DNA from: a bacterium
GTDB lineage: Bacteria; Electryoneota; RPQS01; DYHQ01
Length of the DNA: 64,000 nt
Direction of reading: 5' to 3'
Assembly: GCA_030622545.1 (NCBI GenBank)
Contig: JAUXGA010000003.1
Span: 86,748-150,747, forward strand
Shown here in pieces: positions 5,718 through 30,695 of the stretch (its first letter is position 1; every line of letters begins with the position of its first letter). The notes under the pieces are model-generated. The model saw only the letters and a list, made by a program, of their open reading frames with translations, was not told the origin of the DNA and ran no database searches. Position numbers and translations under genes: made by a program.

Positions 5718-6770
5718 CTATTTCGACAACATCATTTTCTGGATAGATACCGCTTCACCTGTACGGAGTCGTGCGAAATAGGTGCCGGACGCAAGACCAG
5801 TTCCAAGAAAGGTAAACGAGTAATCACCAGGGGACAGCGATCCGTCATGCAGCGTCTCGACCAAGCGGCCGTTGATATCGTAAATGGAAAGCTTGACGTC
5901 GGCGGTTTCCTGCAGCGATATTTTCAAGTTCGTAGTCGGATTGAAGGGGTTGGGATAGACCGGATGCAATGTCGCATTGGCCGACGCAGCGGATGGGCTG
6001 TCAGGCGGCTCGATGTTCGGATTATTCCCGAAGCGTCCATCTCCAAACCTGTTCCTCATCCGTTCATGCATTGCCTGCGCTTCTTCGAATTGAACATAGC
6101 CGTCGCCGTTGGCATCAGCTCTTTGGAACCTCTCCTGAATTCTGTTTGCCCTGCGCATCTCACATCCCACCTCGAACTCGTCGAAGCTCAGCTTACCGTC
6201 GCCGTTAACATCTCTCTGGTTGAACATATCTGGCGGCGGCGGGTTGTTTCCGCGTCTTCCTTGTCTTTTAGCGCGCATCGCTAATGCTTCTTCATGTTGA
6301 ATGTAGCTGTCGCCATTGGTATCAATCCTTTGGAATCTCTCCTGAGCCCTGTTTCTTCTGCGCATTTCGCATCGCGCTCCGAATTCTTCGAAGCTTAGTT
6401 TACCGTCACCGTTAACATCTCTCTGGTTGAACATATCCGGCGGAGGCGGATTGTTTCCGCGTCTTCCCTGTCTCCGGGCGCACATTGTCTGTGCTTCTTC
6501 ACGTTGAATGTAGCCATCGCCGTTAGCATCGGCCCTTTGGAAATTTTCTTGAGCTCTCTCCGCTCTGCGGTTTTCATGCCCGCCTTTGAACTCTTCGAAG
6601 TTCAGTTTGCCGTCGCCGTTGAGGTCAAAGTTGCTGAACCGCTGTTCAGGATTGCAGTCGCGCCCGCCTCTGAATTGAGCATAACCAGCGGCGCTGATAA
6701 CAAAAAGCGCCAGCAGTGCTGTTAGAGACAGGTAAATCAGCGCATTGCGTTTTGATTTGATTTTTAACAT
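5718..6770 (-). CDS. Secreted EF-hand calcium-binding repeat protein with a T9SS C-terminal sorting domain
   Basis: Signal peptide begins at the internal Met MLKIKSKRNALIYLSLTALLALFV. Multiple DxNGDGxxxxEE EF-hand loops. The tail PVYPNPFNPTTNLKIS...GTYFARL...MMLSK is a T9SS sorting domain. The ORF track extends to 6824. Confidence 0.7.
   Translation of the reverse strand: MLKIKSKRNALIYLSLTALLALFVISAAGYAQFRGGRDCNPEQRFSNFDLNGDGKLNFEEFKGGHENRRAERAQENFQRADANGDGYIQREEAQTMCARRQGRRGNNPPPPDMFNQRDVNGDGKLSFEEFGARCEMRRRNRAQERFQRIDTNGDSYIQHEEALAMRAKRQGRRGNNPPPPDMFNQRDVNGDGKLSFDEFEVGCEMRRANRIQERFQRADANGDGYVQFEEAQAMHERMRNRFGDGRFGNNPNIEPPDSPSAASANATLHPVYPNPFNPTTNLKISLQETADVKLSIYDINGRLVETLHDGSLSPGDYSFTFLGTGLASGTYFARLRTGEAVSIQKMMLSK
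5980..6640. repeat. In-frame tandem repeats of about 207 bp (69 aa) inside the EF-hand gene
   Basis: The unit DMFNQRDVNGDGKLSFEEF...RQGRRGNNPPPP occurs twice nearly identically, plus a diverged third copy. Near-identical DNA blocks sit about 207 nt apart, for example around 6181 and 6388. Confidence 0.8.
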
Positions 6771-6953
6771 GGTAAGACCCTTTCTTCCATATGTTATGTT
6801 TTGTGATTTTTGCTTCCCGTTCACCCATTAGACGAACCCAACGTCTGGTTTATTCCACCGCTAATTTGCCCGGAATGCAAAAAAAACCGGAGGCGAATCT
6901 CATTGACGAGATTGTCGTCTCCGGTGGAATTCCCCGCACAGCTTTAAACGTTA

Positions 6954-7373
6954 TCAGCGTCTTCGACCGCGTCCCATTCGCTCATGTTTCATAGGTCGCC
7001 CCATTCTCTCGGCGCGGGCTCGCCTATCACCGATGTGTTTTTCAAGTCGGGCCTTCTGCCTGTCGGTGAGTAATGGTTGAAGTTCTGCAAACATGGAATC
7101 CATCACAGCGTGCATCTCAAATCGTGTTTCGCGGGTCAGATTTCGGACTTTCGAGGCTGTTTCCTCCACGATAGCCGTGACCGCTTCCCGCTGGTCAGCT
7201 TCCAGCGGCTCTATAATTTTAATCAGTCGGATAGACAACATATCCGGTCTTATCATATTATCGATTCTGCGATATCGACTGTCCGCGAGAGTTCTTGCCA
7301 TGAGCGCGCCCAATACAATTCCGATCAGCAGAGTGCCGATGATAATTAGTGCAGGTTTTACTTGAAGATTCAT
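6954..7373 (-). CDS. Periplasmic LTXXQ-motif protein (CpxP/Spy-like) with an N-terminal membrane anchor
   Basis: Two LTxxQ-like motifs (LEADQREAV and LTDRQKARL). Last gene of the sigma/anti-sigma operon. Confidence 0.5.
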   Translation of the reverse strand: MNLQVKPALIIIGTLLIGIVLGALMARTLADSRYRRIDNMIRPDMLSIRLIKIIEPLEADQREAVTAIVEETASKVRNLTRETRFEMHAVMDSMFAELQPLLTDRQKARLEKHIGDRRARAERMGRPMKHERMGRGRRR

Positions 7374-7720
7374 AGCGCATCCGTAAGGTTATAGTTAGCG
7401 ATTGATGACTCGATGGTCACAGCAGGCAAGGCCAGAGCCGCTTCAAGAGTTGAACGGCCGTTTCCCAGCGAATGTTGACTGGATATATTATAGGCGGCCA
7501 GAGCTACGATAAGAATCACAGCCGCCACAGCTACCCGCCGAAATACCCAAGCTAACGCTCGCGTGAAAGACTCTTCTGCTGCCGGGCTGGCATTGATTCG
7601 ATTCATGACGCGGGCGGAGAAGAACGGTTTGAACGAGTCCTCTGTATTCTCTCGAATCAGTTGAGCGAGATGTTCTTCTTCGCCAGCTCGTTTCGTATTA
7701 GATTTCTTTCCATTTTTCAT
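7370..7720 (-). CDS. Putative membrane-anchored anti-sigma factor
   Basis: Immediately downstream of the ECF sigma with a 4-nt overlap with the next gene. Single TM segment (VAVAAVILIVALAAY). Confidence 0.4.
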   Translation of the reverse strand: MKNGKKSNTKRAGEEEHLAQLIRENTEDSFKPFFSARVMNRINASPAAEESFTRALAWVFRRVAVAAVILIVALAAYNISSQHSLGNGRSTLEAALALPAVTIESSIANYNLTDAL

Positions 7721-7743
7721 AAGAAATAATTCCCCTAATTTCT

Positions 7744-8388
7744 CTATTCGCCCATGAATGGACGGAGTTGTTGTTTCAGTTTTTCCTGCGCTCTCGAAAG
7801 GCGAGACAGCACCGTCCCCAACGGTATCCCAAGTAATTCAGCGGTTTCTTTCGTGGAATAGCCGTTAATCATGCGCATCACAACGACCGCTCGATGTTTC
7901 GGATCCAACGATTGAATGGCGCGCTGCACAAGTTCCTTTCGTTCGCGAGCATCGATTTCCTTTTCGCCCTGCACCACAAGTTCATCCGGCAGCACTTCCT
8001 TCTCTTCATAGTTCCAGAAGCGCAATTTGCTTCTCTTCCTTCGCCTGAGCGCGTCCAGCGAGAGGTTGATAGCAATTCGGGTCAGATACGTTCCGATTTT
8101 TGCATCTCCGCGAAATTTGCCAAGAGAATGGTAAAATTTGATAAACGTTTCCTGCCCGACGTCCTCCGCATCATCTCCCTTGCCAAGCATGCCTATTACC
8201 GTGGCAGCCACAAGCGATTCATAGCGCTCCACAAGCTCTTTGAAAGCGGCCTGCTGACCTTCGCGGGCTTGGGCAAGCAATTCCGCATCCGGCTCATTGC
8301 CACTCCTTGGTCTTCGCTTATTAGACGAATCGCTCGAACGATTTATTCCCAAAGCAGTTATATCCAGTCTTTTCTGTGGCCAGCCCAT
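7744..8388 (-). CDS. RNA polymerase ECF-type sigma-70 factor
   Basis: Sigma-70 region 2 (…AEDVGQETFIKFYHSL…) and a region 4 HTH (YSTKETAELLGIPLGTVLSRLSRA). Confidence 0.85.
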   Translation of the reverse strand: MGWPQKRLDITALGINRSSDSSNKRRPRSGNEPDAELLAQAREGQQAAFKELVERYESLVAATVIGMLGKGDDAEDVGQETFIKFYHSLGKFRGDAKIGTYLTRIAINLSLDALRRRKRSKLRFWNYEEKEVLPDELVVQGEKEIDARERKELVQRAIQSLDPKHRAVVVMRMINGYSTKETAELLGIPLGTVLSRLSRAQEKLKQQLRPFMGE

Positions 8389-8702
8389 GTATCCTACAAC
8401 GCTACGGCTTCTTCTTTTCCATTCTCATAATTAGACGTGGTGAAGACTTGATTTATTCCATGCGGCAGCCAAAATCCAGATTTCAACAATGAATATACAA
8501 AATACCGATGAAAAAATCCAAACCTGCGAACGCACAGTATAAGAATTTGATAATTATTGCGTTAAAGAAGCTGGTGGTGTGGCAGGATAAGGAGAAGGCA
8601 GAAGGTATTTCTATTGTCTGGCTTTGGAAATAAAAATGCGGCGCACCATGCAACCGCAATAAACCACCCCTATCGCCACTTATTAGATAATACACAAGCA
8701 CT

Positions 8703-8727
8703 TACATTGAGCGGCTGACGGGACTCG
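8703..8727 (-). repeat. 25-nt copy of the tRNA-Gly 3' end; att-like direct repeat (putative attR) of an island ending at 16471
   Basis: TGAGCGGCTGACGGGACTCGAACCC is identical to 16447-16471. The flanking sequence diverges immediately and no complete tRNA can be folded here. Confidence 0.7.
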
Positions 8728-8844
8728 AACCCTACAGATTAACGCCCTCTAAGCCCTGTAAAATCAACAGTTACAAAATCTTCGCTTACTCTTAAGAGTG
8801 TCCTCCAGTGTGACGTAAATTGCTGTTCTTTGCTCTGGATTCTC

Positions 8845-8871
8845 CAAAAAACAGTACATTTTCAGTACAGG
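8845..8871. promoter_or_regulatory. Paired CAGTACA motifs (aaaaaacagtacattttcagtacagg); candidate integrase arm-type sites
   Basis: It shares the exact 15-mer aaaaacagtacattt with 30260-30274, which lies between integrase 2 and the tmRNA 3' end. Confidence 0.4.
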
Positions 8872-8963
8872 AAAGTAGAGGAAAGAACTTCGTCCACAGT
8901 CTCTTGAGACTCCTAAGTCTGTTCAATCTTGACGTTCATGAGCTGGACCAGTCAGAACATGAT

Positions 8964-11918
8964 TCACGACTCGTTCTTCAAACGTGCTAATCGTTTCTTG
9001 GCATCTTCGATTTTTTCTATTCCCGGATCAGCGTCCTTCCAAATGTCGAGGAACTCTTCGTATTGTCCGATAGCTTTATTCGTCCAGCCTGATTTCTCGT
9101 AAGCTAACCCCAAATGGTACTGAGCTGTCACCGCCTCAATGGCGGTCATTGCCCTGACGCCATCATACCTTGACAGCGCTTTCTCCAGTTCAGTTACGGC
9201 TTCACCCAGCCTTCCTGATTCCAAGTAAACTTCACCGGCGAAGAGCCCCATTAGAAAGGGCAGAGAGCTTGATTCTGCAGATGCCTTTTCTACGAAGGTC
9301 GCCGCCGCTTCGGTGTTTCCTTGAACCATCTCAATATTGCTCATAGCCAGCCAGTACCGATGCTTGTAGATCTGATCCCCTTTTTCAATATCCGCTTTCA
9401 AGGCCCGTGTAACTTCGTTAGCCTCTTCAATCTGGTTATTCTCCGCCAGCATCACTGCATAATAGTCCCGCTGATAAATTAAATCACTGGGATTGGCCCT
9501 GTGTAAAATTTCCGTGCATTTCTTAGCTTGAACAACGGCCGCTTCTGAATTCTTCATCTCCCGATAGATACTGGCTTTCAAGAAATGCTTCCATGCATTC
9601 TGTGTTCCACTATATTGTTCCATTCTGTCTGCGGCAAGCCCGTTGTCTAAAACCTTCAGCGCTTCTTTGAACTTTCCCTTTTGAAGAGGGATATAAGCGA
9701 GGTAGGTTCTTCCCGATGACCGAGTACCTTTTTCGCTGCCGGAGGCAAGCTCTTTGTAACAGCTTTCAGCTTTTGCGTACTCCCGTTTAAAAAGATACAT
9801 ATGTCCCAGTTTGTCCAAGGAACCGAAATCAGGTTTGATTTGCAGCGCCTTTTTGTAAGACTCAATTGCCTCGTCAATTTTACCATTGTAACCATAGAGG
9901 TCACCTCGAGTATCATAAGGATTAGCTTCATCAGGCGCGATTGAGATGTATTTGCTGATGGCCCAGATGGATTTGTCAAAATCACCAATGGCATTGTAGG
10001 CATAAGCAAGGAAATTATATGCCATCTTGTAGAGAGGATCTATCTCAATAGCTTTTGTGAAAGAGCGAATAGCTTTCTGAGGCTCATTGAGTAGATTGTA
10101 ATAAATGACACCCGACCACATATACGCGCGTTTCTCATCAGGATAGCGTTCGATTATCTTCTCAGTTTCCTTGATTGCCTGCATAAAATTTCCAGATACA
10201 GCTAAGTTCAGACTTCGTATAGAACGTTTCTCCTTCCAGCTTGCTTTGTCGGAATATTGCATGGCCTTATCTGCTAATCTTGCCTTTTCCGAACCCGATT
10301 TGAACATAGCCAAATGATAGTATGCAACGGCGAAAGTTGAGTCAAATTCCAGGGCTTTCATGAAACTCTTCTCGGCGTCGTCCCAATAGAACTTTTGGAA
10401 GAGTTCGATTCCTTCCAGATAGTGGCGATAGGCTTCCGGTGAGCTTGTGGTGACATTCTGTATGAGACGATCCGGTTCCTCTTGAGCTTCAGTGGGCAGG
10501 GCTAAGTCTTTCTTGATTTCAGCGGTCAGTTTATCAACCAATGAAAATATATCTTCGCCTTTATCGCCGGTGATTCGCTGCGAAGCAATCGCGTTGCCTG
10601 TGGAGACTTCGACCACTTGTGCCGTGATGGTAATCTGCGGTTCAACCTGCAGAATATTCCCCAGAAGCATCCACTTTGCTCCCGCTTTCGTAGCTATCTG
10701 TGTCGCAACGCTTCGGTCAACTTTTTTCTCGCCTTCCCTTCCTAAGAGCTTGAGAATATCATACAATCTCTGACTGGAAACCACTTGGACATAGTGCGAT
10801 TCCGACAGGTCAGTAATCAGGAGATTCGTAACGATCTCTCCCCATCGTTGCTCATCCTCCGCGTCGGCTACATTATCGAAGTACATGATGGCGAGTCGAT
10901 TCTCTGCCGCAACAGCTTCAGCAGCAGGTCGCACCTCGAATGTCCAGGGTTTGAAAAGGACTAGCAGCAAAGCGATGAGGATTACTATCGAACCGGGGAT
11001 GAGAAACCTCAATGCACTCCTTTTTCGGAGTGTCACAGGTGGATGAGCATAGACGCTCGATTCCGAAGCTTTCTTAAGCCGTTTCAAATCCGTCAATAAA
11101 CTCACTACTGTTTGATAGCGCGTCTCCAAATCCTTATCGAGAGCTTCGTCGATGATTCTCTGCAAATCATCCGGAACATCTGATTTATATCGTGCCAGTG
11201 GTTCGGGTGTGTCATGCACAATAGCATTCATGGTCGCCGCTTCGGTATCTCGCTGAAATGGTGACTGACCGGTAATCATCTCATATAAAACAACACCGAG
11301 TGAAAAGATATCTGATCGCTGGTCAGTTTCTTTGCCCTCCACCTGCTCAGGAGACATATAGCTGACTGTTCCAAGCGTCGAACCGGTTCGAGTGAGTTTC
11401 GCTGTTCCCTTGACCGTCGCCAATCCGAAATCAAGCAATTTTGGCCGACCGTCGGCGTCCATGACGATATTCGACGGCTTGATATCTCGATGAATAATCC
11501 CTGCTTCATGAGCCTTGCTCAAGCCCTCACAAATCTGCACAGCAAGATTAATGATGGTGCTGATAGACAACTCTTGTTTCTCGATGAAATCCCGAAGAGA
11601 TTGGCCTTCCATGAGTTCCATCGCGAAAAACGGACGGCCTTGAAAATCCCCGACTTCATAAATCGTCACGATATTCGGGTGATTCAGTTGCGCCGCCGCT
11701 TGTGCTTCGCGTTTGAAACGGGTGCGGCAGTCTTCATCTTGACATAAGTGAGGCGGGAGAAATTTCAGGGCAACTTTGCGATTGAGCTTCGTATCTTTGG
11801 CAAGATACACTTCTCCCATTCCACCGGCACCGATCTTCTCGATGATTTGGTAATGGGAGATTACCATTCCTTTGGAAAGGACAACATGTGTCTGCGTCTT
11901 GCCGTTTTCAGATTCCAT
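8964..11918 (-). CDS. Hanks-type Ser/Thr protein kinase with TM helix, TolB-N-like domain and C-terminal TPR array (paralog 1)
   Basis: Kinase motifs GAGGMGEVY, VALK, HRDIKPSNI, DFG and SPE. The likely start is the internal MESENGKTQ (the ORF track extends to 11981). After the TM segment comes LAIMYFDNVADAEDEQRWGEI, then many TPR-like repeats. Confidence 0.85.
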   Translation of the reverse strand: MESENGKTQTHVVLSKGMVISHYQIIEKIGAGGMGEVYLAKDTKLNRKVALKFLPPHLCQDEDCRTRFKREAQAAAQLNHPNIVTIYEVGDFQGRPFFAMELMEGQSLRDFIEKQELSISTIINLAVQICEGLSKAHEAGIIHRDIKPSNIVMDADGRPKLLDFGLATVKGTAKLTRTGSTLGTVSYMSPEQVEGKETDQRSDIFSLGVVLYEMITGQSPFQRDTEAATMNAIVHDTPEPLARYKSDVPDDLQRIIDEALDKDLETRYQTVVSLLTDLKRLKKASESSVYAHPPVTLRKRSALRFLIPGSIVILIALLLVLFKPWTFEVRPAAEAVAAENRLAIMYFDNVADAEDEQRWGEIVTNLLITDLSESHYVQVVSSQRLYDILKLLGREGEKKVDRSVATQIATKAGAKWMLLGNILQVEPQITITAQVVEVSTGNAIASQRITGDKGEDIFSLVDKLTAEIKKDLALPTEAQEEPDRLIQNVTTSSPEAYRHYLEGIELFQKFYWDDAEKSFMKALEFDSTFAVAYYHLAMFKSGSEKARLADKAMQYSDKASWKEKRSIRSLNLAVSGNFMQAIKETEKIIERYPDEKRAYMWSGVIYYNLLNEPQKAIRSFTKAIEIDPLYKMAYNFLAYAYNAIGDFDKSIWAISKYISIAPDEANPYDTRGDLYGYNGKIDEAIESYKKALQIKPDFGSLDKLGHMYLFKREYAKAESCYKELASGSEKGTRSSGRTYLAYIPLQKGKFKEALKVLDNGLAADRMEQYSGTQNAWKHFLKASIYREMKNSEAAVVQAKKCTEILHRANPSDLIYQRDYYAVMLAENNQIEEANEVTRALKADIEKGDQIYKHRYWLAMSNIEMVQGNTEAAATFVEKASAESSSLPFLMGLFAGEVYLESGRLGEAVTELEKALSRYDGVRAMTAIEAVTAQYHLGLAYEKSGWTNKAIGQYEEFLDIWKDADPGIEKIEDAKKRLARLKNES

Positions 11919-11923
11919 AAGTT

Positions 11924-14563
11924 TTATCCATATTTCTTTAGGAGCGCTTTGAACCGCGGATGTTCGCGGAGAGGATCCCATCTCGGATCGAGGCGAAGCA
12001 AAGGAACTGAGAGTTCGGAGGGAATCGAAAGAAGGTAGTCTATTTGGTCCAAGGCGGCATCGTACTCACCCACCATCACATAGATTTGCGCCAGGTCAGA
12101 TACGCGTTCTGGACCGATTAAAGCGTCTTTCAAGATTGGCATGAGCTCCATTCCCTGCTTCCCTTCGCGGATCGCCTCCTCCTTGCGTCCAAGGCCGGCG
12201 TAGACAATGCCAAGAGAGCTGTGAAGGCGGTAATCGTCGGGCCGCTCTTTCACTTCCGCTTCCAGCAGAATGCGGGCAGAATCGAAGGAGGCGCGGGCAA
12301 GCTCAGGCTCGCCCATGAGCCGATAAACCAAACCCGTCAATTGGACATTTGGGATGAGTCGATACTGGTCGTCCCAAGATTCGGAGGACATGGAAGCGGT
12401 CCGATCCAATGCCGCTTGGTAGTCTCTCTCATACATTTCTTGCAGAAACCATCTGTAGCCGACCTTACCGGGCATCTCTTCTAAGATGGCCCGGGACCGT
12501 ACGGTATCACCTTTCCACCGGCAGCAATTCTCGGCTTTCATGTAGTAGGAACCCACCTGATCTGGAGCTAAGAAAATGGAGCGATCGTAATAGCGCTCGA
12601 CTTCGGCGTACCTCCTCAGGTAGGTGTAGGTAACGGCGATCTCCGAAGTCAGCTTGGCATCGCGTGGGTTCAATTCGAAAGCGCTTTTCTGGCGGTCTAT
12701 GGCTTCTTTAAACCTCCCCTGCCTCCGCCAGATATAGGCTACCAAGAGATTCTTAGCGCGTGTTGGTGGGGGATGATGCTTCTCCGCGGCGGCTAAGGCT
12801 TCCAGTGCTCGATCATAATCTCGATAGCCCCAATAGTAGTAGTACCCAAGCGCCAGATGTGCTTCTGGGAGTTCCGGGCTAAGTACGAGTGCCCGATCTA
12901 CTCCTGTCTTGGCCTTGGTCAAGCACTCTTCGGTACGGTCATACCAGAAGTGATACAGGCCTGAGTAGTTCTTTGAGAGTGCGGCGTAAGCCAAAGCGAA
13001 ATTGGGATCGAGTTTTACAGCTCGCTCGAACATTTGAGTCGCCCGTCGGAAATTCTCCTCGGTACGGTCCGGTCGCGCTACATATTCAGATCCGCGAAGA
13101 TAGGCCTGGTAGGCATCGAGGTTCTCAGTCGGCTTGGCCTGTAGGTCTCGCTGCTCCGGTTCGAGCAGCGTAACGTCGAGCGCCTCGGCAATCTTGGTCG
13201 CGATATCCGCCTGCACCGCGAAGATCTGAGTCAACGACCGCTCGTAGCTATCCGCCCAGAGATGGATATCATCCGATACCTTAATGAGCTGCGGCGTGAT
13301 ACGCACCCGATTTGTATCGCCCGATTTGTCCCACCGAATAGTGCCCTCTAAAATGAATTCGACTCCAAGTTCCTTGGCAATCACCGGAAGAGTCTTGTCT
13401 GTTTTCTTGTACTGTATTGAACTGGTGCGAGAGATGACGCCAAGCTCCTGAATGCATGCAAGTCGTCCAATAATCTCATCCGTAATACCGTCAGCGAAGT
13501 ATTCATCCTCTGGAGCGCCGAGATTGACAAATGGCAACACAGCCAGCATCTTTTTCCCTTCGCTCACCCCAGCCTGTTCCTTCGGCCAGAACGAAAACAA
13601 AACAACGACTGCAACAACAGCTGCAACGACACTCCCAACCATAAACGGCCAGCGAAAAGAGCGCTTCGGTGCCGCGATTGTCGCTCGACTCTCTCTCCTG
13701 ACCGCCAGACCTTTTAAATCAGAGATGACACTGGCAGCATTCTGATATCTCAACGAAGGATCTTTCTCAAGCAACTTGGAGATAATTCGCTGCAGTTCAT
13801 CTGGTACATCGGCTTTATACCGAGCCAATGGTTCCGGTGTATCATTCTGTATGGAATTCAGAATTGCTGCTTCTGTCTCCCCTGCAAAGGGACGACGACC
13901 TGCAATGAGTTCATACAAAATTATGCCAAAAGAAAAAAGATCGCTGCGGTGATCAACTTCCTTTCCCTGTACTTGCTCGGGAGACATGTAGCCTACAGTA
14001 CCAAGAGTCGAACCGGTCCGTGTGAGTTTCTCTGTCCCCTTAACCGTCGCCAATCCAAAATCAAGCAATTTTGGCCGACCATCAGCATCCATGACGATAT
14101 TCGATGGCTTGATGTCGCGATGAATAATCCCTGCTTGGTAAGCCTTGTTCAAACCTTCACAGATCTGCAGAGCAAGATTGATTATTGACTCGAAGGTCAG
14201 CGTATTTTGTTTGATAACATCTTGCAGCGACTGTCCCTCCACATATTGCATGACGATGTAAGGTCGTCCCTGATGTTCGCTAACATCATGGATAGCAATG
14301 ATATTCGGATGATCCAAAACAGCGGCAGCCTGCGCTTCGCGTTTGAAACGAGTGCGGCAGTCTTCATCCTGGCATAAATGCGGCGAGAGAAATTTCAGGG
14401 CAACTTTGCGATTGAGCTTGGTGTCCTCCGCAAGATACACCTCACCCATACCACCAGCGCCAATCTTCTCGATGATTTTGTAATGAGAGATTAACATTCC
14501 TGGAGAGAGGATTACGAACGACTGTGTTTTCCCCATTCCATTGTCATTGACGTTTGAAGGCAT
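11924..14563 (-). CDS. Hanks-type Ser/Thr protein kinase with TM helix, TolB-N-like domain and C-terminal TPR array (paralog 2)
   Basis: The kinase domain is about 85-90% identical to paralog 1 at protein and DNA level. The likely start is MPSNVNDNGMGKTQ (the ORF track extends to 14671). LAVLPFVNLGAPEDEYFADGITDEI motif, then TPR repeats. Confidence 0.85.
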   Translation of the reverse strand: MPSNVNDNGMGKTQSFVILSPGMLISHYKIIEKIGAGGMGEVYLAEDTKLNRKVALKFLSPHLCQDEDCRTRFKREAQAAAVLDHPNIIAIHDVSEHQGRPYIVMQYVEGQSLQDVIKQNTLTFESIINLALQICEGLNKAYQAGIIHRDIKPSNIVMDADGRPKLLDFGLATVKGTEKLTRTGSTLGTVGYMSPEQVQGKEVDHRSDLFSFGIILYELIAGRRPFAGETEAAILNSIQNDTPEPLARYKADVPDELQRIISKLLEKDPSLRYQNAASVISDLKGLAVRRESRATIAAPKRSFRWPFMVGSVVAAVVAVVVLFSFWPKEQAGVSEGKKMLAVLPFVNLGAPEDEYFADGITDEIIGRLACIQELGVISRTSSIQYKKTDKTLPVIAKELGVEFILEGTIRWDKSGDTNRVRITPQLIKVSDDIHLWADSYERSLTQIFAVQADIATKIAEALDVTLLEPEQRDLQAKPTENLDAYQAYLRGSEYVARPDRTEENFRRATQMFERAVKLDPNFALAYAALSKNYSGLYHFWYDRTEECLTKAKTGVDRALVLSPELPEAHLALGYYYYWGYRDYDRALEALAAAEKHHPPPTRAKNLLVAYIWRRQGRFKEAIDRQKSAFELNPRDAKLTSEIAVTYTYLRRYAEVERYYDRSIFLAPDQVGSYYMKAENCCRWKGDTVRSRAILEEMPGKVGYRWFLQEMYERDYQAALDRTASMSSESWDDQYRLIPNVQLTGLVYRLMGEPELARASFDSARILLEAEVKERPDDYRLHSSLGIVYAGLGRKEEAIREGKQGMELMPILKDALIGPERVSDLAQIYVMVGEYDAALDQIDYLLSIPSELSVPLLRLDPRWDPLREHPRFKALLKKYG

Positions 14564-14594
14564 TTGAAACTCTCTTGAAGAAGACGTCTTCCTG

Positions 14595-16241
14595 TTATTT
14601 TTCCCTGTGCAAAACCACCATCGTAATATCATCGCTGCGTGGAACATCTCCGATGAATTTGCGTACTTCATTCATCACCAATTCTGTCAATTCTTTCGGA
14701 GATTGGTTGCGACACTGTTGGACAAATTCCTCTAACCTTTCATCACTGAATTGTTCATCCTGACAGTTGATTGCTTCAGGAATGCCATCCGTAAAAATGA
14801 ATAAATAGTCGCCAGTTCCGAACTCGAGAGATTCCTCTTTCCAAATGTCGTGATCCAGCATTCCGATTGGAACACCAGATGACTCAAGATAATCTACAGA
14901 ACCTGCATCTCGCAGAATCAACGGTGGATTGTGTCCCGCATTAACGTAACGAAAAGTATGCGCACTTGGATCGAGTACGCCGATAAAAAGCGTCGCAAAA
15001 TCTCCCGGACGGCTGAAGGTCAGTAATTGTTTTGACATACGGCGCACGGCATCCAATGGATGAAAATCCTTCGCGTTATGCAAAATGCGGAAACCGGCCA
15101 AGATGTTTGAGGCTAAGAGAGCTGCCCCCATTCCTTTACCACAAACATCCGCTACAAGAAATAGGATTCGCCCATCTTCGAATTTTGCAATATCATAGAG
15201 ATCACCACCGACCTGTTTGCACTGAATCTGAAAGGCATGGAAGCTGTAATTAGCAAGATGAGGCAACTCTTTCGGTAATAATTGCTCCTGAATTTGTGAT
15301 GCGGTTTCCAGTTCAGACTCTAAAACCTGTTTGGCTTGTCGCTCTTTGAGGAGATTGCAATTGGCGATTTTGGCGCCAAGAATATTTCCAAAAGTCGCCA
15401 TTACTCTTAGATGGTCTTCATTATAATGATGCATGGGATTGGTCGTATCCGCATACAGAATCCCCGTGATTTTATCTTCATCAAACAGCGGCACGGCCAT
15501 CGCAGATTTGATGCGTGATTCGATGATTGATTTTTGCGCTGCAAATTTACGATCCCTTTGAATATCAGACAGCAAAAGTGCATTCTTCTGATTGAGAAGT
15601 TCATGGACGACTGTTCGAGAGATGTTAAATGAATCTGAATGTCTTCTATCAGAAGTATAAGAAGCGGCAACAGCGATTTCTTCCTTTTGTTCCTCGGCAG
15701 AGAAGATGGCGATGCGTTCAACCGGAATAAGATCTTTGAATAATTCCAACGCTTGACCATACATTTCTTCCGCAGGGCCAGACAAAATAAGCATCTTTCC
15801 CAGTTCGGAGAAGGCTTTAAACAACTTCGGGTTCTCAAGTATTTTGGATGGAAGAGGTTGAAGCGCTTCCTTTATCGGCAATCGAGTGACATTCACCAGA
15901 CCATCTACAGAATCAGTAATATGAACCGAACTATGCAGAATGTCAGAAAATTCATCACGAGAAATTTTTGCTTCTATTCCGCCGAAAGTGATAATGTCAT
16001 CAAGTTGAATTTGTACAGTGCCATCGATTCTGTGTCCATCGACAGCAGTCCCATTGTGACTTCCGAGATCTGTCAGATTGATTGTTTGTTCATCAATAAC
16101 GTCGAGCTGGGCATGTTTCCGAGACACCGTTTCATCTTCTATTATCAATTCGCACTGCGGGCTCCGTCCAATTGTGTACTTACCGCGTTGCAAAGGCCAC
16201 TTCTTGTGTTTGCCAGCCGATAGAATGAAGAAGTTAATCAT
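14595..16241 (-). CDS. FHA-GAF-PP2C (SpoIIE/RsbU-like) Ser/Thr phosphatase
   Basis: N-terminal FHA domain (GRSPQCELIIEDETVSRKHAQL…NGTAVDGHRI), a central GAF-like region, and PP2C motifs (LVADVCGKGMGAALLAS, FTDGIPEA, DDITMVVL). Confidence 0.85.
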   Translation of the reverse strand: MINFFILSAGKHKKWPLQRGKYTIGRSPQCELIIEDETVSRKHAQLDVIDEQTINLTDLGSHNGTAVDGHRIDGTVQIQLDDIITFGGIEAKISRDEFSDILHSSVHITDSVDGLVNVTRLPIKEALQPLPSKILENPKLFKAFSELGKMLILSGPAEEMYGQALELFKDLIPVERIAIFSAEEQKEEIAVAASYTSDRRHSDSFNISRTVVHELLNQKNALLLSDIQRDRKFAAQKSIIESRIKSAMAVPLFDEDKITGILYADTTNPMHHYNEDHLRVMATFGNILGAKIANCNLLKERQAKQVLESELETASQIQEQLLPKELPHLANYSFHAFQIQCKQVGGDLYDIAKFEDGRILFLVADVCGKGMGAALLASNILAGFRILHNAKDFHPLDAVRRMSKQLLTFSRPGDFATLFIGVLDPSAHTFRYVNAGHNPPLILRDAGSVDYLESSGVPIGMLDHDIWKEESLEFGTGDYLFIFTDGIPEAINCQDEQFSDERLEEFVQQCRNQSPKELTELVMNEVRKFIGDVPRSDDITMVVLHREK

Positions 16242-16429: not shown

Positions 16430-16446
16430 TGAATATTAACAACTTG

Positions 16447-16518
16447 AGCGGCTGACGGGACTCGAACCCGCAACACCCAGCTTGGGAAGCTGATACGCTA
16501 CCATTGCGTCACAGCCGC
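16447..16518 (-). tRNA. tRNA-Gly (anticodon CCC)
   Basis: RC reads GCGGCTG TG ACGC AATGGTA GCGT A TCAGC TTCCCAA GCTGG GTGTT GCGGG TTCGAGT CCCGT CAGCCGC T. This gives a 7-bp acceptor stem, a CCC anticodon in the loop and a GGGTTCGAGTCCC T-arm. CCA is not encoded. Confidence 0.85.
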
Positions 16519-16596
16519 AGAGTTTTTTGAAGAAGCCTTTAGCACCTGTTAATTAATGGTTTAAAAAGGGGTTTTCGGCCGGCCCGGCTTAATGGA

Positions 16597-17742
16597 TTAA
16601 TTCTTCGTAGACAAAATGGTAGACAATTCTGATGTGGAAGCTTTTCTAAGTGCCTGTTTCAAATCGGACATATCAAGTAATCCTGCATAGTTGTGGATGG
16701 TCGTCTGTATGCTGCTATGTCCCAAAATCTGTTTGACTGCGATTAAGGGAACACCGCTAAGAAGCATGTTCACGGCGAACGTATCGCGAAGGTTGTGCAT
16801 TTTCAGTGATCGTAATCCTGCTGCATCCCTGGCGCGATTGAATTTGATTGAAACATCATGTCGTATTCCCGGAAACAGTTTTCCTTTGCGTGGTTCTGGG
16901 AAAGCATTCAGAAGTTCTTTCTTCAGTACAGGTAAGATGGGAATTCGTCGTCCCCGTTTGGATTTAGTGATTCCCGCCGCTAAGATGATTTGCTCTGCAT
17001 CCAAGTCTACAATTCCGACGTTGGAAGAAATCACTTTCCTTGTGGTGTCGAACCATTCAAGTGATCGGGCTTCATTGCGCCGCATTCCTGTCAGTGATAA
17101 GACGACTAAGAAGGTTCGAATGGATACGCCGTTCTGGGTAATAGATTCGGCAGCTTCCAGCAATCGTCTGACTTCATCTGGTTTGTAGTAATCCCTGTTT
17201 ACCTGCGCGGGCACCCTGACTTCGTGAATGTGTGGGGGGTTCCATTCTTCCAGATCATTTTCCCTGACGCACCAATTCAGAAAGGCACGAAGATTACGAA
17301 GATGAATGTTCAGCGTATGTTTTGATAGTGGTCTAAGTCGTTTCTTCAAGCGGTTTCTGGCACCGCGTTTTATCAGTGCCGCCTGGAATTGGGATACGTG
17401 CTTCTTGGTTATCGCTTTCAACTGTAGATTTCCAACTACTTCCATAAAGATTTTCAGGGTGTGCTGGTGCAATTCACCGGTACGTTCACCCCATTGATGC
17501 TGCCGTTCTTCAAGGTATTCTTCCACCAGGCTGTGGATAGTTGGGCTGTCCTGCCCTTTGGCATTGGCAAAGGGATCGCGTCCGCGGTCAAGTTCGTGCT
17601 GAAGGTACTGGGCAATCTTAGTCGCTTCTTTCTTCTGGCTGGTTTGGGTGTTATGGGATTTTCGTCGGCCGTCTGGATATTTAATTTTCGCATACCATAC
17701 AGTCTTTCCATCAGCCAACGTCCTACGGTATAGTGATGTCAT
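16597..17742 (-). CDS. Tyrosine-type site-specific recombinase / phage integrase (integrase 1)
   Basis: C-terminal HxxR…Y catalytic motifs (HNLRDTFAVNML, HNYAGL). Start chosen at the internal MTSLYRR, preceded by the RBS AGGAGGG; the ORF track extends to 17790. Confidence 0.9.
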   Translation of the reverse strand: MTSLYRRTLADGKTVWYAKIKYPDGRRKSHNTQTSQKKEATKIAQYLQHELDRGRDPFANAKGQDSPTIHSLVEEYLEERQHQWGERTGELHQHTLKIFMEVVGNLQLKAITKKHVSQFQAALIKRGARNRLKKRLRPLSKHTLNIHLRNLRAFLNWCVRENDLEEWNPPHIHEVRVPAQVNRDYYKPDEVRRLLEAAESITQNGVSIRTFLVVLSLTGMRRNEARSLEWFDTTRKVISSNVGIVDLDAEQIILAAGITKSKRGRRIPILPVLKKELLNAFPEPRKGKLFPGIRHDVSIKFNRARDAAGLRSLKMHNLRDTFAVNMLLSGVPLIAVKQILGHSSIQTTIHNYAGLLDMSDLKQALRKASTSELSTILSTKN

Positions 17743-17760
17743 GGTTATCCCTCCTAAGAT

Positions 17761-17796
17761 AGAAAAACCCCGAAGTGACTGAATTGTCACCTCGGG
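17761..17796 (-). terminator. Strong rho-independent terminator between the nuclease gene and integrase 1
   Basis: 12-bp stem CCCCGAGGUGAC / GUCACUUCGGGG followed by UUUUU on the minus strand. Confidence 0.7.
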
Positions 17797-17828
17797 GCTC
17801 TTGGGTTAATGGATATGTTTCTACGTTC

Positions 17829-18635
17829 TCACGCCAGCGGATCAGCTATGCAGCTTACCTTGAATGGACAATCCACGCACTGCCATCCTGGGTTCGGGTA
17901 GAAGTGCTCCTCTCTCATGGCCTCACTTATCATCATCAGCATCCTCACAAATCGCTGTGCATCCTGATAAGTGCGATGGGTCTGGTACTTCAGGTGCAGG
18001 GGTGTTTTGTTCTTTAAAAGTACATCGAATCGAAGGTGGATGACCTCATTCTTCTCAATTGAATAGGCTTCCCGCGCCCAAAGGCTATAGGCTGTCAGCT
18101 GTAAGTTTCGTTGCACAGAATCATCAGTGTAGCGCGCACTGGCTGTCTTGTAATCCACGAACACAATATTCCCGTCATCAGTCTGCTCGATCAGGTCAAT
18201 TCTTCCGACCAAAGGCACGTCCAAAGTTTCGCCGGTTTCTCCATCCACGACATTCAGGGTGAAATCCTCTTCTACGCCCAGAACATCGCCGGGTTTGACG
18301 TTCTTCATGAAGCAATCTAACATCGCATGTCCCTGTTGTTGTATTTCTACCGGATCCTTGCCCGTCTTGAACTTCATCTCGACCTCAGCACAATCCTGAT
18401 ACAATCTCGTATCGAAGACGTCCTGAAGGTCTGTGATGGATGTTCTCTTTCTCTCTAAGTGATCGGTGTAATATTTCTCGATGGCTGCGTGAATAGCAGA
18501 TCCAAGCGTAAGGGCTGCTGGTTTGAATTGCCATTCCTCTCTGTCGATGTACTGGAAGCGATATCTCAGGGGGCAGATCAGGTACGTGTTGACTTGGCTG
18601 AAGCTGATATGGTCTGGGATGTTTGCGTAATTCAT
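17829..18635 (-). CDS. PD-(D/E)XK nuclease, Cas4/RecB-like exonuclease with a 4Fe-4S cysteine cluster
   Basis: N-terminal Cys (YLICPLRY), C-terminal C-x2-C-x5-C (CVDCPFKVSC), and a DYK-type nuclease core (FVDYKTA). Start at MNYANIPD with the RBS AAGGAGG; the ORF track extends to 18701. Confidence 0.75.
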   Translation of the reverse strand: MNYANIPDHISFSQVNTYLICPLRYRFQYIDREEWQFKPAALTLGSAIHAAIEKYYTDHLERKRTSITDLQDVFDTRLYQDCAEVEMKFKTGKDPVEIQQQGHAMLDCFMKNVKPGDVLGVEEDFTLNVVDGETGETLDVPLVGRIDLIEQTDDGNIVFVDYKTASARYTDDSVQRNLQLTAYSLWAREAYSIEKNEVIHLRFDVLLKNKTPLHLKYQTHRTYQDAQRFVRMLMMISEAMREEHFYPNPGWQCVDCPFKVSCIADPLA

Positions 18636-18717
18636 GGTGTTCCTCCTTTGGGTAAAAGGGAAGCGGCGCGGCCGATATGTTATTCGACTACGCCGCCTCA
18701 TTGCTCTGTTTAATTGA

Positions 18718-19479
18718 TTAGTTCCCGTTCAGGAAATGCCTCGATACCTGTCTGTTCCACGTCTCCGCGCGAAATGACTCCTGCCGTGTGAAGACATCAG
18801 TGAACGCATTATACAGGGCCCACTGATTATCTCCGTCCAGTGCCATGAACACATCGGCAGTGTACGTCTTGGGCAGCTTCAATTCACGGAAGGTGTTCTG
18901 GATGTCGGCTCTGTCGATGGGGATGTCCACTATCCTCTTCAGGCATGTGACTAATCCCAGCATCTTGTTAGACAGTTCTCTGATAGTGATGGCTGCTTGG
19001 GATAGCTCCTCAGTGAAGCCCTCGTTTCCGTAGTGCTTGAAACGGAAGCCCCCTAAGCGGAAGTCAACGACCATACCATTCGTGCAGATAAGTCTTTGCG
19101 CATTGAAGGCCAGTCCGAATGTCGTGCTGCCGTCATAGCTGTTAAATACGTCCACGGCTATCTGGACGATGTCGTCCTTCTGGGGTTCGAAGTTGATCTC
19201 CGGTAGAAGCCATCTTTGACGGTATCTCTTTCCATCGAACAGGTGTTTGGCTGACTGGTACTCATGGCCGGTTTTCTCCAGCACTTCTGTGGCGATCTCA
19301 CAAACGGTGTGGTTCTCGACCAGCTGATAGTCACCAGACACGATACCGACCTCTCTGTTCTCACAGTAGGGGTCAAGGATCACGGCATAACGCGAAGATT
19401 GCGCTCCGTTCTCAGTAAATAGGGGAACCTTTTTCACGGCGGCAAAGGGATCCAGGGGTTCAGTTGTTTTCTGTGACAT
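18718..19479 (-). CDS. Hypothetical phage/ICE protein, DUF932-like
   Basis: 253 aa. The central region VFNSYDGSTTFGLAFNAQRLICTNGMVV resembles the DUF932 signature. Recalled from memory, not searched. Confidence 0.45.
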   Translation of the reverse strand: MSQKTTEPLDPFAAVKKVPLFTENGAQSSRYAVILDPYCENREVGIVSGDYQLVENHTVCEIATEVLEKTGHEYQSAKHLFDGKRYRQRWLLPEINFEPQKDDIVQIAVDVFNSYDGSTTFGLAFNAQRLICTNGMVVDFRLGGFRFKHYGNEGFTEELSQAAITIRELSNKMLGLVTCLKRIVDIPIDRADIQNTFRELKLPKTYTADVFMALDGDNQWALYNAFTDVFTRQESFRAETWNRQVSRHFLNGN

Positions 19480-19568
19480 GATAGTTTCCTTTCTGGGTTA
19501 ATGGCATAAAAAAAGCCTCGACTTTCTTATGAAGCCGGGGCCTTACGATACGATAATTCTTGTTACTC

Positions 19569-20228
19569 TCATGCAGGTACATCCTCCAGGATTGTCAGTA
19601 GCTCGTCTGCCTCGTGTGTGGTCAGTGCGTACAGGGATTTCGAAAAGCGATTGCGGATCTTCTTGATTAGTTGGTTCTGGGGGATACCTTTTTGCTTGGC
19701 CACCTGGAAGATCTTGCTCATTTGGGCGTTGGTGACTCGGTGGGATTGCTCTTCGGGTTCTGCTTCCTCCTCTGGCTGTGGATTAGCTGATTCCTTGCCT
19801 CCGTTTCCGTTCGGCTTGATTTCCAGCCCGTACAGGTGCAGTCCCACACCGAACTGCGTGGCGCACTTCTTCAGGCAATCTGATGCTGCTCCTTTCAGGT
19901 CGTCTCCGATGCTCACAGGTTGGTTGTCCTGCTTGCCTCGTGTGATCGAAGATGAACCGAATTGCTGGTGTGTGATTCCGTGGGAAGATAATTCTCCAAG
20001 GACGATGACCTCGTCCTCAAGGATCAGGTGCTCGACGATGCGGAATGACCAGTATCCTTCCATCGCTTGGTTCAGGCGTTCGATGACGTAATGGGATCCG
20101 ACATAGTCCAGCATTTTGCCAAATCTGCCCTTACGTTGTTGGATTCTCTCCTCTTCGAATGGCTTGGTTAGCGCCTCAAGATTAAGGCGGCCATTACCGG
20201 TGCCGGTGGTTGTCTCGGTGGTTTCCAT
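19569..20228 (-). CDS. Rad52/Rad22-family single-strand annealing protein (phage Sak-like recombinase)
   Basis: The motif DDLKGAASDCLKKCATQFGVGLHLYG parallels Rad52 [23 protein letters not shown]. It is adjacent to the Cas4-like exonuclease, a two-gene recombination module. It has an acidic C-terminal tail. Confidence 0.6.
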   Translation of the reverse strand: METTETTTGTGNGRLNLEALTKPFEEERIQQRKGRFGKMLDYVGSHYVIERLNQAMEGYWSFRIVEHLILEDEVIVLGELSSHGITHQQFGSSSITRGKQDNQPVSIGDDLKGAASDCLKKCATQFGVGLHLYGLEIKPNGNGGKESANPQPEEEAEPEEQSHRVTNAQMSKIFQVAKQKGIPQNQLIKKIRNRFSKSLYALTTHEADELLTILEDVPA

Positions 20229-30333: not shown

Positions 30334-30342
30334 CTAATTTGT

Positions 30343-30695
30343 GGAGACGGCGGGAATCGAACCCGCGTCCGAGAAGCGGACCACAGACGGTACCACAGGC
30401 TTCTTCGCTTGTTTAAAATCTCACTCCCAGGCCGCACAAACGACAAAACTATCAGGAGCCAGCCGCTAAATCTCGCGCGCTACTCGCGACACTGAAGCAC
30501 GCCAGCGGGTCTTAAATGGCGCTCGACTCATCAACCAACCCGCAAATCGGTGAGGAGCGTGCCACCTAATTCTTAGGCAGCAAGAGCATAAGTGCTATTG
30601 GCACTTGTGTTTTTGGGGTGTGATTATGGAGGATGCCCCAGCCTCCGCCTGCACCTTCTGCCACCCATTCATCCCGTCGAAACCAGATCGTCCCC
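30343..30695 (-). ncRNA. ssrA: tmRNA (SsrA)
   Basis: 5' end GGGGACGATCTGGTTTCGACGGGAT… and 3' end …GGACGCGGGTTCGATTCCCGCCGTCTCCA, a tRNA-Ala-like acceptor and T-arm. The internal tag reading frame is GCC AAT AGC ACT TAT GCT CTT GCT GCC TAA, giving (A)ANSTYALAA. Confidence 0.85.

Follow-up and report, generated by a model that had tools for sequence, protein, structure and literature searches.

The closest functional analogue of the system described here is the pknA-pknB cluster of Mycobacterium tuberculosis, with the gene order fhaA-fhaB-pstP-rodA-pbpA-pknA-pknB, in which tandem transmembrane (TM) kinases of the Hanks type lie beside a phosphatase of the PP2C family and FHA-domain readers. 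Exchange of sequence between duplicated genes has been described in other settings. Clusters of receptor-kinase and resistance (R) genes in plants, e.g. the Xa21 family, are shaped by unequal crossing-over and gene conversion, and the paralogs tufA and tufB of Salmonella are reportedly subject to gene conversion and concerted evolution, a topic said to have been reviewed by Santoyo and Romero in 2005. Here we describe a minus-strand operon that encodes one phosphatase and a tandem pair of predicted receptor kinases, B and A, within a stretch of 64,000 nucleotides (nt) of a bacterium classified in the Electryoneota (the window; contig JAUXGA010000003.1 of assembly GCA_030622545.1, positions 86,748 to 150,747). 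We find that A and B are ancient paralogs, that the likeness of their kinase halves is mainly due to the slow evolution of the kinase domain throughout the family, and that a tract of about 190 nt was most likely copied between the two genes, from B to A.

The first gene of the operon (14595..16241, minus strand, as are all genes given below) encodes an FHA-GAF-SpoIIE/PP2C phosphatase (Pfam SpoIIE E=4.6e-44, 151 bits against a cut-off of 25; FHA 1.2e-17, 64.5 bits against a cut-off of 20.7; GAF_3 7e-11). It is followed by the genes for kinase B (11924..14563, 879 amino acids (aa)) and kinase A (8964..11918, 984 aa), each of which combines a Pkinase domain with a single TM helix and TPR repeats. 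The tandem arrangement of the pair and its tight packing agree with the original prediction: 5 nt separate the B stop codon (TAA, 11924-11926) from the ATG of A at 11918, and the phosphatase gene lies directly upstream, 31 nt from the ATG of B at 14563, its GAF domain being an addition to what had been noticed. In M. tuberculosis, too, FHA genes are found in clusters with those for kinases and phosphatases (PMC1262709). In contrast to that cluster, FHA, GAF and the SpoIIE-type phosphatase are here joined in one polypeptide. In addition, the sensors of A and B are TolB-N-like domains followed by TPR repeats and, unlike in PknB of M. tuberculosis, no PASTA match was found in either of them (E<=0.01). 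The present operon also lacks cell-wall genes, is known from sequence alone and belongs to another phylum, of the Zixibacteria type to judge from the labels of homologs.

Both kinases are predicted to be of the Hanks Ser/Thr type on the basis of profile matches and catalytic motifs. The Pkinase profile PF00069 (cut-off 31.7 bits) matches A with 190.5 bits (E=4.9e-56; aa 23-269, 11112-11852) and B with 189.4 bits (E=1.1e-55; aa 28-274, 13742-14482), over model positions 1-253 of 263, and the GAGGMG G-loop, VALK, HRDIKPSN, DFG and SPE are all located in both. No further kinase was found in the window besides A and B. The start of A (MESENGKTQ) agrees with the N-termini of its orthologs, which favour 11918 over an alternative upstream ATG at 11981 that would extend the reading frame 58 nt into the 3' end of B; the start of B is likewise backed by ortholog N-termini.

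The kinase halves are less alike than had been supposed. An identity of 85-90% over the N-terminal 310 or so residues had been claimed, and alignment gave 70.4% over 294 aa (BLASTP) and, for the DNA of the first 325 codons, 67%. The divergence is patchy and not uniform, yet the two genes are ancient paralogs: DNA identity is 85-91% in A codons ~26-75 and 126-175, 55-61% between and after these blocks, and below 40% from about codon 276. Likewise, the proportion of synonymous differences (pS) between A and B is 0.72-0.86 in four of six segments, 0.56 in codons 26-75 and 0.38 in codons 126-175. The juxtamembrane region (codons 251-345) is 33-55% identical, and the sensor halves are indeed much more diverged, as had been noticed, with about 12-30% identity.

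The longest exact run shared by A and B measures 33 nt (11757-11789 and 14387-14419). Of the identical runs quoted originally, a 30-mer was recovered at 11760-11789 and 14390-14419, whereas the other string proved to consist of two runs of 17 nt with one mismatch between them; these strings fall in the block of codons 26-75, one of them at 14333-14368 in B. In simulations in which synonymous codons were resampled from the usage of the window while both proteins were held fixed, the longest run had a mean of 15 and a maximum of 32 nt, against the 33 nt observed (P<5e-4). Moreover, codon identity at identical residues is 0.62 in codons 26-75 and 0.67 in the tract discussed below, where 0.35-0.40 is expected. 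The similarity of the two blocks therefore exceeds what protein conservation alone would yield. In codons 76-122 and 187-250, codon identity is at the level of chance. Exact runs of 20-26 nt also occur between A or B and kinases of other genomes.

The notion of a recent duplication is refuted by the existence of separate full-length ortholog families for A and B in other genomes. Thousands of homologs share the full-length architecture of kinase A, and the best of them are 67-72% identical to it end to end; a protein search with A returned no entry above 72% identity (the record of A itself was not looked up). Kinase B is identical to the NCBI protein entry P0121, and its family, with full-length identities of up to 64%, carries the labels Zixibacteria, Latescibacteria, Eisenbacteria, Aminicenantes and FCB group; in a scan of genome contigs, no genome exceeded 58% identity to B. 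The kinase domain of A is 76% identical to those of its best orthologs (P0001 and P0004) and that of B 81% identical to that of P0123, compared with 70% between A and B. Across many genomes the kinase domains attached to both sensor types are 65-76% identical to those of A and B. The contrast between kinase and sensor halves is thus mostly a matter of constraint and a property of the family. The sensors themselves form separate families that are spread over several phyla and are about 23% identical between types and 55-72% within a type.

The trees and site patterns point the same way. Over the whole kinase domain, quartet site patterns are divided as 142 orthologous, 26 concerted and 15 cross. 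In neighbour-joining (NJ) trees of codons 251-345, all B-type sequences form one clade (100% bootstrap), and A of the window groups with the A-type genes of loci L002, L049 and L053 (87%). The juxtamembrane region and the sensors are strictly orthologous. The layout of the operon is conserved as well. The same phosphatase gene lies upstream of the kinases also in L001, L002, L004, L005, L042 and L049-L052, and many of the loci retrieved have two to five kinases of this kind in tandem. The 165-kb contig of L002, from a metagenome-assembled genome (MAG), has phosphatase, B and A in this order plus a third tandem kinase, C, which follows A (12867-15866, 999 aa, with an A-like sensor); L051 has the phosphatase and B and then the first 92 codons of A on its contig; and L052 joined to L048 has phosphatase, B and A, followed by the same genes for an extracytoplasmic function (ECF) sigma factor and an EF-hand protein as in the window.

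Within this ancient framework, one segment stands out. A codon alignment was made of the kinase domains of A and B and of eleven related full-length or partial genes. BLASTN, pS, triplet counts and NJ trees delimit a candidate conversion tract that spans codons 123-186 of A (11361..11552) and codons 128-191 of B (13991..14182), from the end of helix E through the HRD catalytic loop, DFG and the activation loop to just before SPE. The two copies are reciprocal best BLASTN matches, with 87.2% identity over 188 nt, in a search of the window and all loci then available. The next-best match of the A copy is the B ortholog of L002 (79.8%), followed by the A orthologs (75.7-76.6%), and that of the B copy is again the L002 B ortholog (78.5%). 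At synonymous sites of codons 126-175, the A-B pS of 0.38 compares with 0.51-0.86 for the other pairs compared there, and the pair within the L002 genome is not lowered (0.76). In triplet counts A sided with B against five A orthologs by 28:4, 29:3, 27:8, 29:5 and 28:5 (p 2e-3 to 3e-6), and B sided with A against three B orthologs by 20:7 to 36:7 (20-36 sites versus 7-8). The bootstrap support for an (A,B) pair of the window is 92-94% in the tract segment, compared with 0% in codons 76-125, 176-250 and 251-345, 9% in codons 1-25 and 26% in codons 26-75.

The direction of the transfer is suggested by the company that the pair keeps. In the tract, A is nearer to the B ortholog of another genome than to the A orthologs (+37/-13), and in the segment tree the (A,B) pair adjoins B of L002. 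At the protein level A differs from P0001-P0005 in having adopted the B state (GRPK, KGT, GKE), and only A and B of the window have the M of NIVMD. Together, the affinity of A to a foreign B ortholog, the position of the pair beside the L002 B gene and the B-like state of A argue against an artefact of codon usage and for B as the donor. Hence these comparisons suggest that a tract of about 190 nt was copied between the genes, most likely from B to A. The gene conversion that had been proposed for the whole catalytic module thus survives as a local event in A codons 123-186, but not for the module, for which the quartet counts are mostly orthologous and synonymous sites are saturated except in codons 26-75 and 126-175. 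Nor is the event recent, considering that the copies differ at about 13% of their bases and that pS is 0.38. Orthologous pS in unconverted segments is 0.43-0.56. The copying took place in the lineage of this genome after that of L002 had branched off, at about the time of this split or only a little later.

Taken as a whole, ancient paralogy with family-wide constraint and the conversion of short segments among the tandem kinase domains is the explanation that we consider probable, with reasonable confidence. Several points weigh against it. The tract was picked after the data had been seen, and a scan statistic over the whole alignment with an independent and identically distributed null of p=0.5, which is valid though very conservative, yields p=0.02-0.09 for A and 0.02-0.5 for B. 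The preference for B of the window over B of L002 as the partner of A is moderate (28 sites shared by A and B of the window, 13 by A and B of L002 and 8 by the two B genes; 28:13, p=0.028). Only three sites are exclusive to A and B among 11 sequences, two of them in the tract, a count that is uninformative because the sites are too few and saturated. The trees were made by NJ on 150-250 nt and are not model-based maximum-likelihood trees. The relatives, all of them metagenome contigs, are distant (overall identity is at most 72% for an ortholog of A and 64% for one of B), and for lack of a close relative the event cannot be dated or bracketed. Finally, the sensing, the recruitment through the FHA domain and the benefit of homogenisation that are proposed below are what we infer. 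A permutation of the informative sites gave p<2e-4; this value was discounted, since rate heterogeneity alone can produce such values.

The strongest alternative is that no conversion took place, and that the similar blocks in these ancient paralogs are the product of purifying selection on the catalytic motifs together with shared codon preferences. It draws on the conservation of the blocks in protein throughout the family, on the DNA identity of 82-87% that the block of codons 26-75 retains even between genomes, and on the same borderline scan statistic and scarcity of exclusively shared sites. Nevertheless, we regard it as unlikely. Codon preferences and selection on the protein would have to single out the pair within this genome at the synonymous sites of codons 126-175 while leaving the corresponding pair of L002 as divergent as others, and elsewhere A and B agree at the chance level of codon usage. 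Moreover, the proximity of A to a foreign B ortholog rather than to its own orthologs, and the strongly supported conflict between the trees of different segments, run counter to it.

For the first of the two similar blocks, however, family-wide conservation is the better account. This block covers codons 26-75 of A (11694..11843) and 31-80 of B (14324..14473), comprises the G-loop, the VALK lysine and helix C, and holds the 33-nt run in both. It was considered as a second conversion tract and rejected, despite an excess of synonymous identity over the codon-usage null: the copy in A is 86.6% identical to that in B (14325-14473) and still 82-83% identical to those in the kinases of L042, L017, L002 and L052, and the triplet tests were not significant (16:11 and 16:7). 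With cross-genome pairs nearly as similar as the pair in the window and the triplets not significant, the block is best seen as a case of family-wide conservation of the nucleotide sequence. Indeed, the 82-87% identity across genomes extends over L002, L017, L042, L052 and L053, with a pS of 0.55-0.79 that is below saturation. Frequent exchange and selection on the mRNA are possible causes of this synonymous conservation.

The tract is not the only foreign-looking part of A, whose kinase domain is, to judge from segmental matches, a patchwork with parts from other paralog types. Codons 1-25 and 251-345 are A-type. Codons 76-125 (11544..11693) are nearest to the B-type kinase of L051 (82% to L051 2446-2595), with at most 76% identity to anything else and 100% bootstrap support for the pairing; the exchange behind it is an older one, since the nonsynonymous proportion (pN) is 0.05 and pS 0.65. 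Codons 187-250 (11169..11360) are nearest to the third paralog type, C, of L002 (81.2% to L002 13434-13625; 73-74% to the A orthologs), and A and the C gene pair with 96% support over codons 176-250; no C-type kinase gene was found in the window. Related genes display similar mosaics. In the B-type kinase of L051, codons 185-244 form an A-type patch, and A and B of L052 share an independent region of low pS (0.31) at codons 26-75, with a nucleotide identity of 0.97 in codons 41-60.

Two loci go further and have a single kinase gene directly after the phosphatase, without a B gene. In L049 (1999-4971), from JGI sample 3300056902, the first ~35 codons of this gene are B-type and the remainder A-type, and in L050 (4813-7761), from JGI sample 3300062769, the first ~64 codons are B-type and the remainder again A-type. 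These genes are either products of an unequal crossover between the two kinase domains, which would yield just such a structure, or skips in assembly, which would yield the same. They bear on the claim that the 0.9-kb kinase modules act as direct repeats and as a substrate for deletion or amplification: at 67% identity the modules make poor repeats, but the idea of a deletion substrate finds backing in the two fusions.

All sequences compared are MAG or metagenome contigs, and an assembler that jumps between similar tandem kinase domains, or faulty binning, could in principle create mosaics; the L049 and L050 fusions have the exact structure of an assembly collapsed across a shared block. For the window such an artefact is very improbable. 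Its tract copies differ by ~13% and the longest run common to A and B measures 33 nt, which is too short and too diverged for collapse, and the window lies on a contig of 229,905 bp. The mosaic segments of A were not spliced in from a co-assembled strain, since their matches in other samples have only 81-82% identity. Finally, that recent duplication or ongoing conversion keeps the entire 0.9-kb kinase and juxtamembrane module near-identical while the sensors diversify is hardly credible, in spite of kinase halves far more alike than the sensors and of exact runs of up to 33 nt, considering the mere 70% protein and 67% DNA identity, the closer orthologs of each kinase domain elsewhere, the saturated pS in four of the six segments, the strictly orthologous juxtamembrane codons at 33-55% identity and the sensors that belong to separate multi-phylum families.

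Ancient paralogy with short-segment conversion thus being the preferred account, the mechanism is an ordinary one: paralog conversion and unequal crossover of the kind found in duplicated genes of bacteria and in receptor-kinase clusters of plants. The tract resembles the tuf type of conversion in the non-reciprocal copying within a genome, in paralogs that resemble each other more than they do their orthologs and in the lowered synonymous divergence. It differs from the tuf and rRNA genes in that the copying concerns ~190 nt inside a homology of 0.9 kb, is old and forms part of a patchwork of several paralogs, the genes not being near-identical. The likeness to clusters of the Xa21 type lies in the tandem receptor kinases with divergent ligand-binding halves, the mosaics and the derivatives formed by fusion or deletion. 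Unlike in those clusters, however, the setting is a bacterial operon, the exchange affects the kinase half and not the ligand-binding repeats, and the sensors are ancient and, within each type, conserved, with no sign of diversifying selection. Searches of the literature on gene conversion in bacterial Hanks kinases and on Zixibacteria kinases found nothing.

The sensor halves begin behind the TM helices, which are predicted at aa 305-322 of A (10953-11006) and aa 307-325 of B (13589-13645). Because a sequence search of the sensors against the PDB gave only generic TPR matches, a search by fold was needed. The AlphaFold model of the membrane-proximal domain of A (aa 340-500, 10419-10901; TolB-N/LpoB-like) has a predicted local distance difference test score (pLDDT) of 77 and matches LpoB (E=7e-9, TMt 0.71) and the N-domain of TolB (E=2e-7). 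The corresponding domain of B (aa 345-490, 13094-13531; TolB-N/CadC-like) has a pLDDT of 85.5 and matches the periplasmic part of CadC (E=1.8e-4), TolB (3e-4) and PelC (5e-4), which makes the fold match weaker for B than for A. In both proteins the domain is followed by TPR repeats, with matches to many TPR families in A and to TPR families also in B; Pfam matches of A to LpoB and FlgO are weak and below the cut-offs. The TolB-N-like sensor fold that had been proposed is thereby borne out at the level of predicted structure. As in the periplasmic alpha/beta domains of CadC, TolB-N and LpoB, the predicted fold is succeeded by helical repeats; unlike in CadC and LpoB, it is carried by a Hanks kinase and not by a ToxR-like DNA-binding domain or a lipoprotein anchor, and its identity to the known structures is 12-23%.

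A side observation concerns sensors of the B type in proteobacterial loci. L035, L037, L041, L044 and L046 (Rhodanobacteraceae and other proteobacterial MAGs) contain 4-10 tandem matches, full or partial, to the TolB-N/TPR sensor, and no kinase-domain match precedes any of them. The sensor module appears to expand alone in those loci, and it is probably attached to other signalling domains.

Immediately upstream of the phosphatase gene lies a tRNA-Gly(CCC) gene (16446-16518), followed by genes for a tyrosine integrase (16597-17790), a PD-(D/E)XK nuclease (17829-18701), a DUF932 protein (18718-19479) and an annealing protein of the Rad52/22 family (19569-20228), all on the minus strand like the operon. 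The region 16446-20228 resembles a phage-like element, equipped with a recombination module of its own, that has inserted at the tRNA beside the kinase operon; in L002 a small HsdM_N gene takes its place. In the tentative module-pool reading given at the end, the annealing protein of this element could even be the source of the recombination activity. On the other side are, again on the minus strand, the gene for the ECF sigma factor (7744-8388), two small open reading frames (ORFs) without a Pfam match (7370-7720 and 6954-7373) and the gene for a secreted EF-hand protein (5718-6824) with a Por_Secre_tail of the type IX secretion system (T9SS). L048 has the same gene order as the window from the ECF sigma to the EF-hand region (5718-8388), and these genes may represent an output of the kinase system. 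The 575 nt (8389-8963) that separate the ECF sigma gene from kinase A contain no ORF above 72 aa. In the syntenic L048, Smr and nitroreductase genes take the place of this interval, and a deletion or replacement in the window is therefore likely. Further away, the window contains a tmRNA gene (30341-30695, minus strand) with the tag peptide ANSTYALAA.

How the system would work can be outlined from its domains. Each protein would place its kinase domain in the cytoplasm and, across the single TM helix, its TolB-N-like and TPR sensor outside it, so that the two kinases could sense different extracytoplasmic ligands or partners. They would autophosphorylate on the Thr-rich activation loop, which has the sequence TRTGSTLGT, and the shared phosphatase would reset both of them, recruited to phosphothreonine by its own FHA domain; the GAF domain may add a small-molecule input. 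The motifs GR, SxxH and NG are listed for the binding of phosphothreonine by FHA domains (PMC1262709). In the translation of the phosphatase gene IGR, SRKH and NG are visible, and the FHA domain is a plausible reader of kinase phosphorylation, in keeping with the original prediction. Exchange of the segment with the catalytic and activation loops would, in this scheme, keep both kinases compatible with the phosphatase that they share, although neutral conversion fits the data equally well.

The operon type with one FHA-GAF-PP2C phosphatase and several TolB-N/TPR kinases recurs in the Zixibacteria-type loci examined and is uncharacterised as far as our searches went. In such families the combination of conserved catalytic and divergent sensor halves is the default state and not by itself evidence of conversion. 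The locus is a clean, if modest, illustration of the evolution of bacterial receptor-kinase arrays by patchy exchange, with probable derivatives formed by fusion or deletion, and it warns that in families of this kind the history of the genes will not be reflected in trees built from the kinase domains. More tentatively, and with more doubt than confidence on our part, the tandem receptor-kinase arrays beside a shared phosphatase might constitute a pool of recombining modules in Zixibacteria-type bacteria, in which short-tract conversion and unequal crossover shuffle the catalytic and activation-loop segments and sometimes fuse or delete genes, thus matching all kinases to one phosphatase while the ancient sensor types persist. 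If true, such a module pool would be a bacterial counterpart of the evolution of receptor-kinase clusters in plants.

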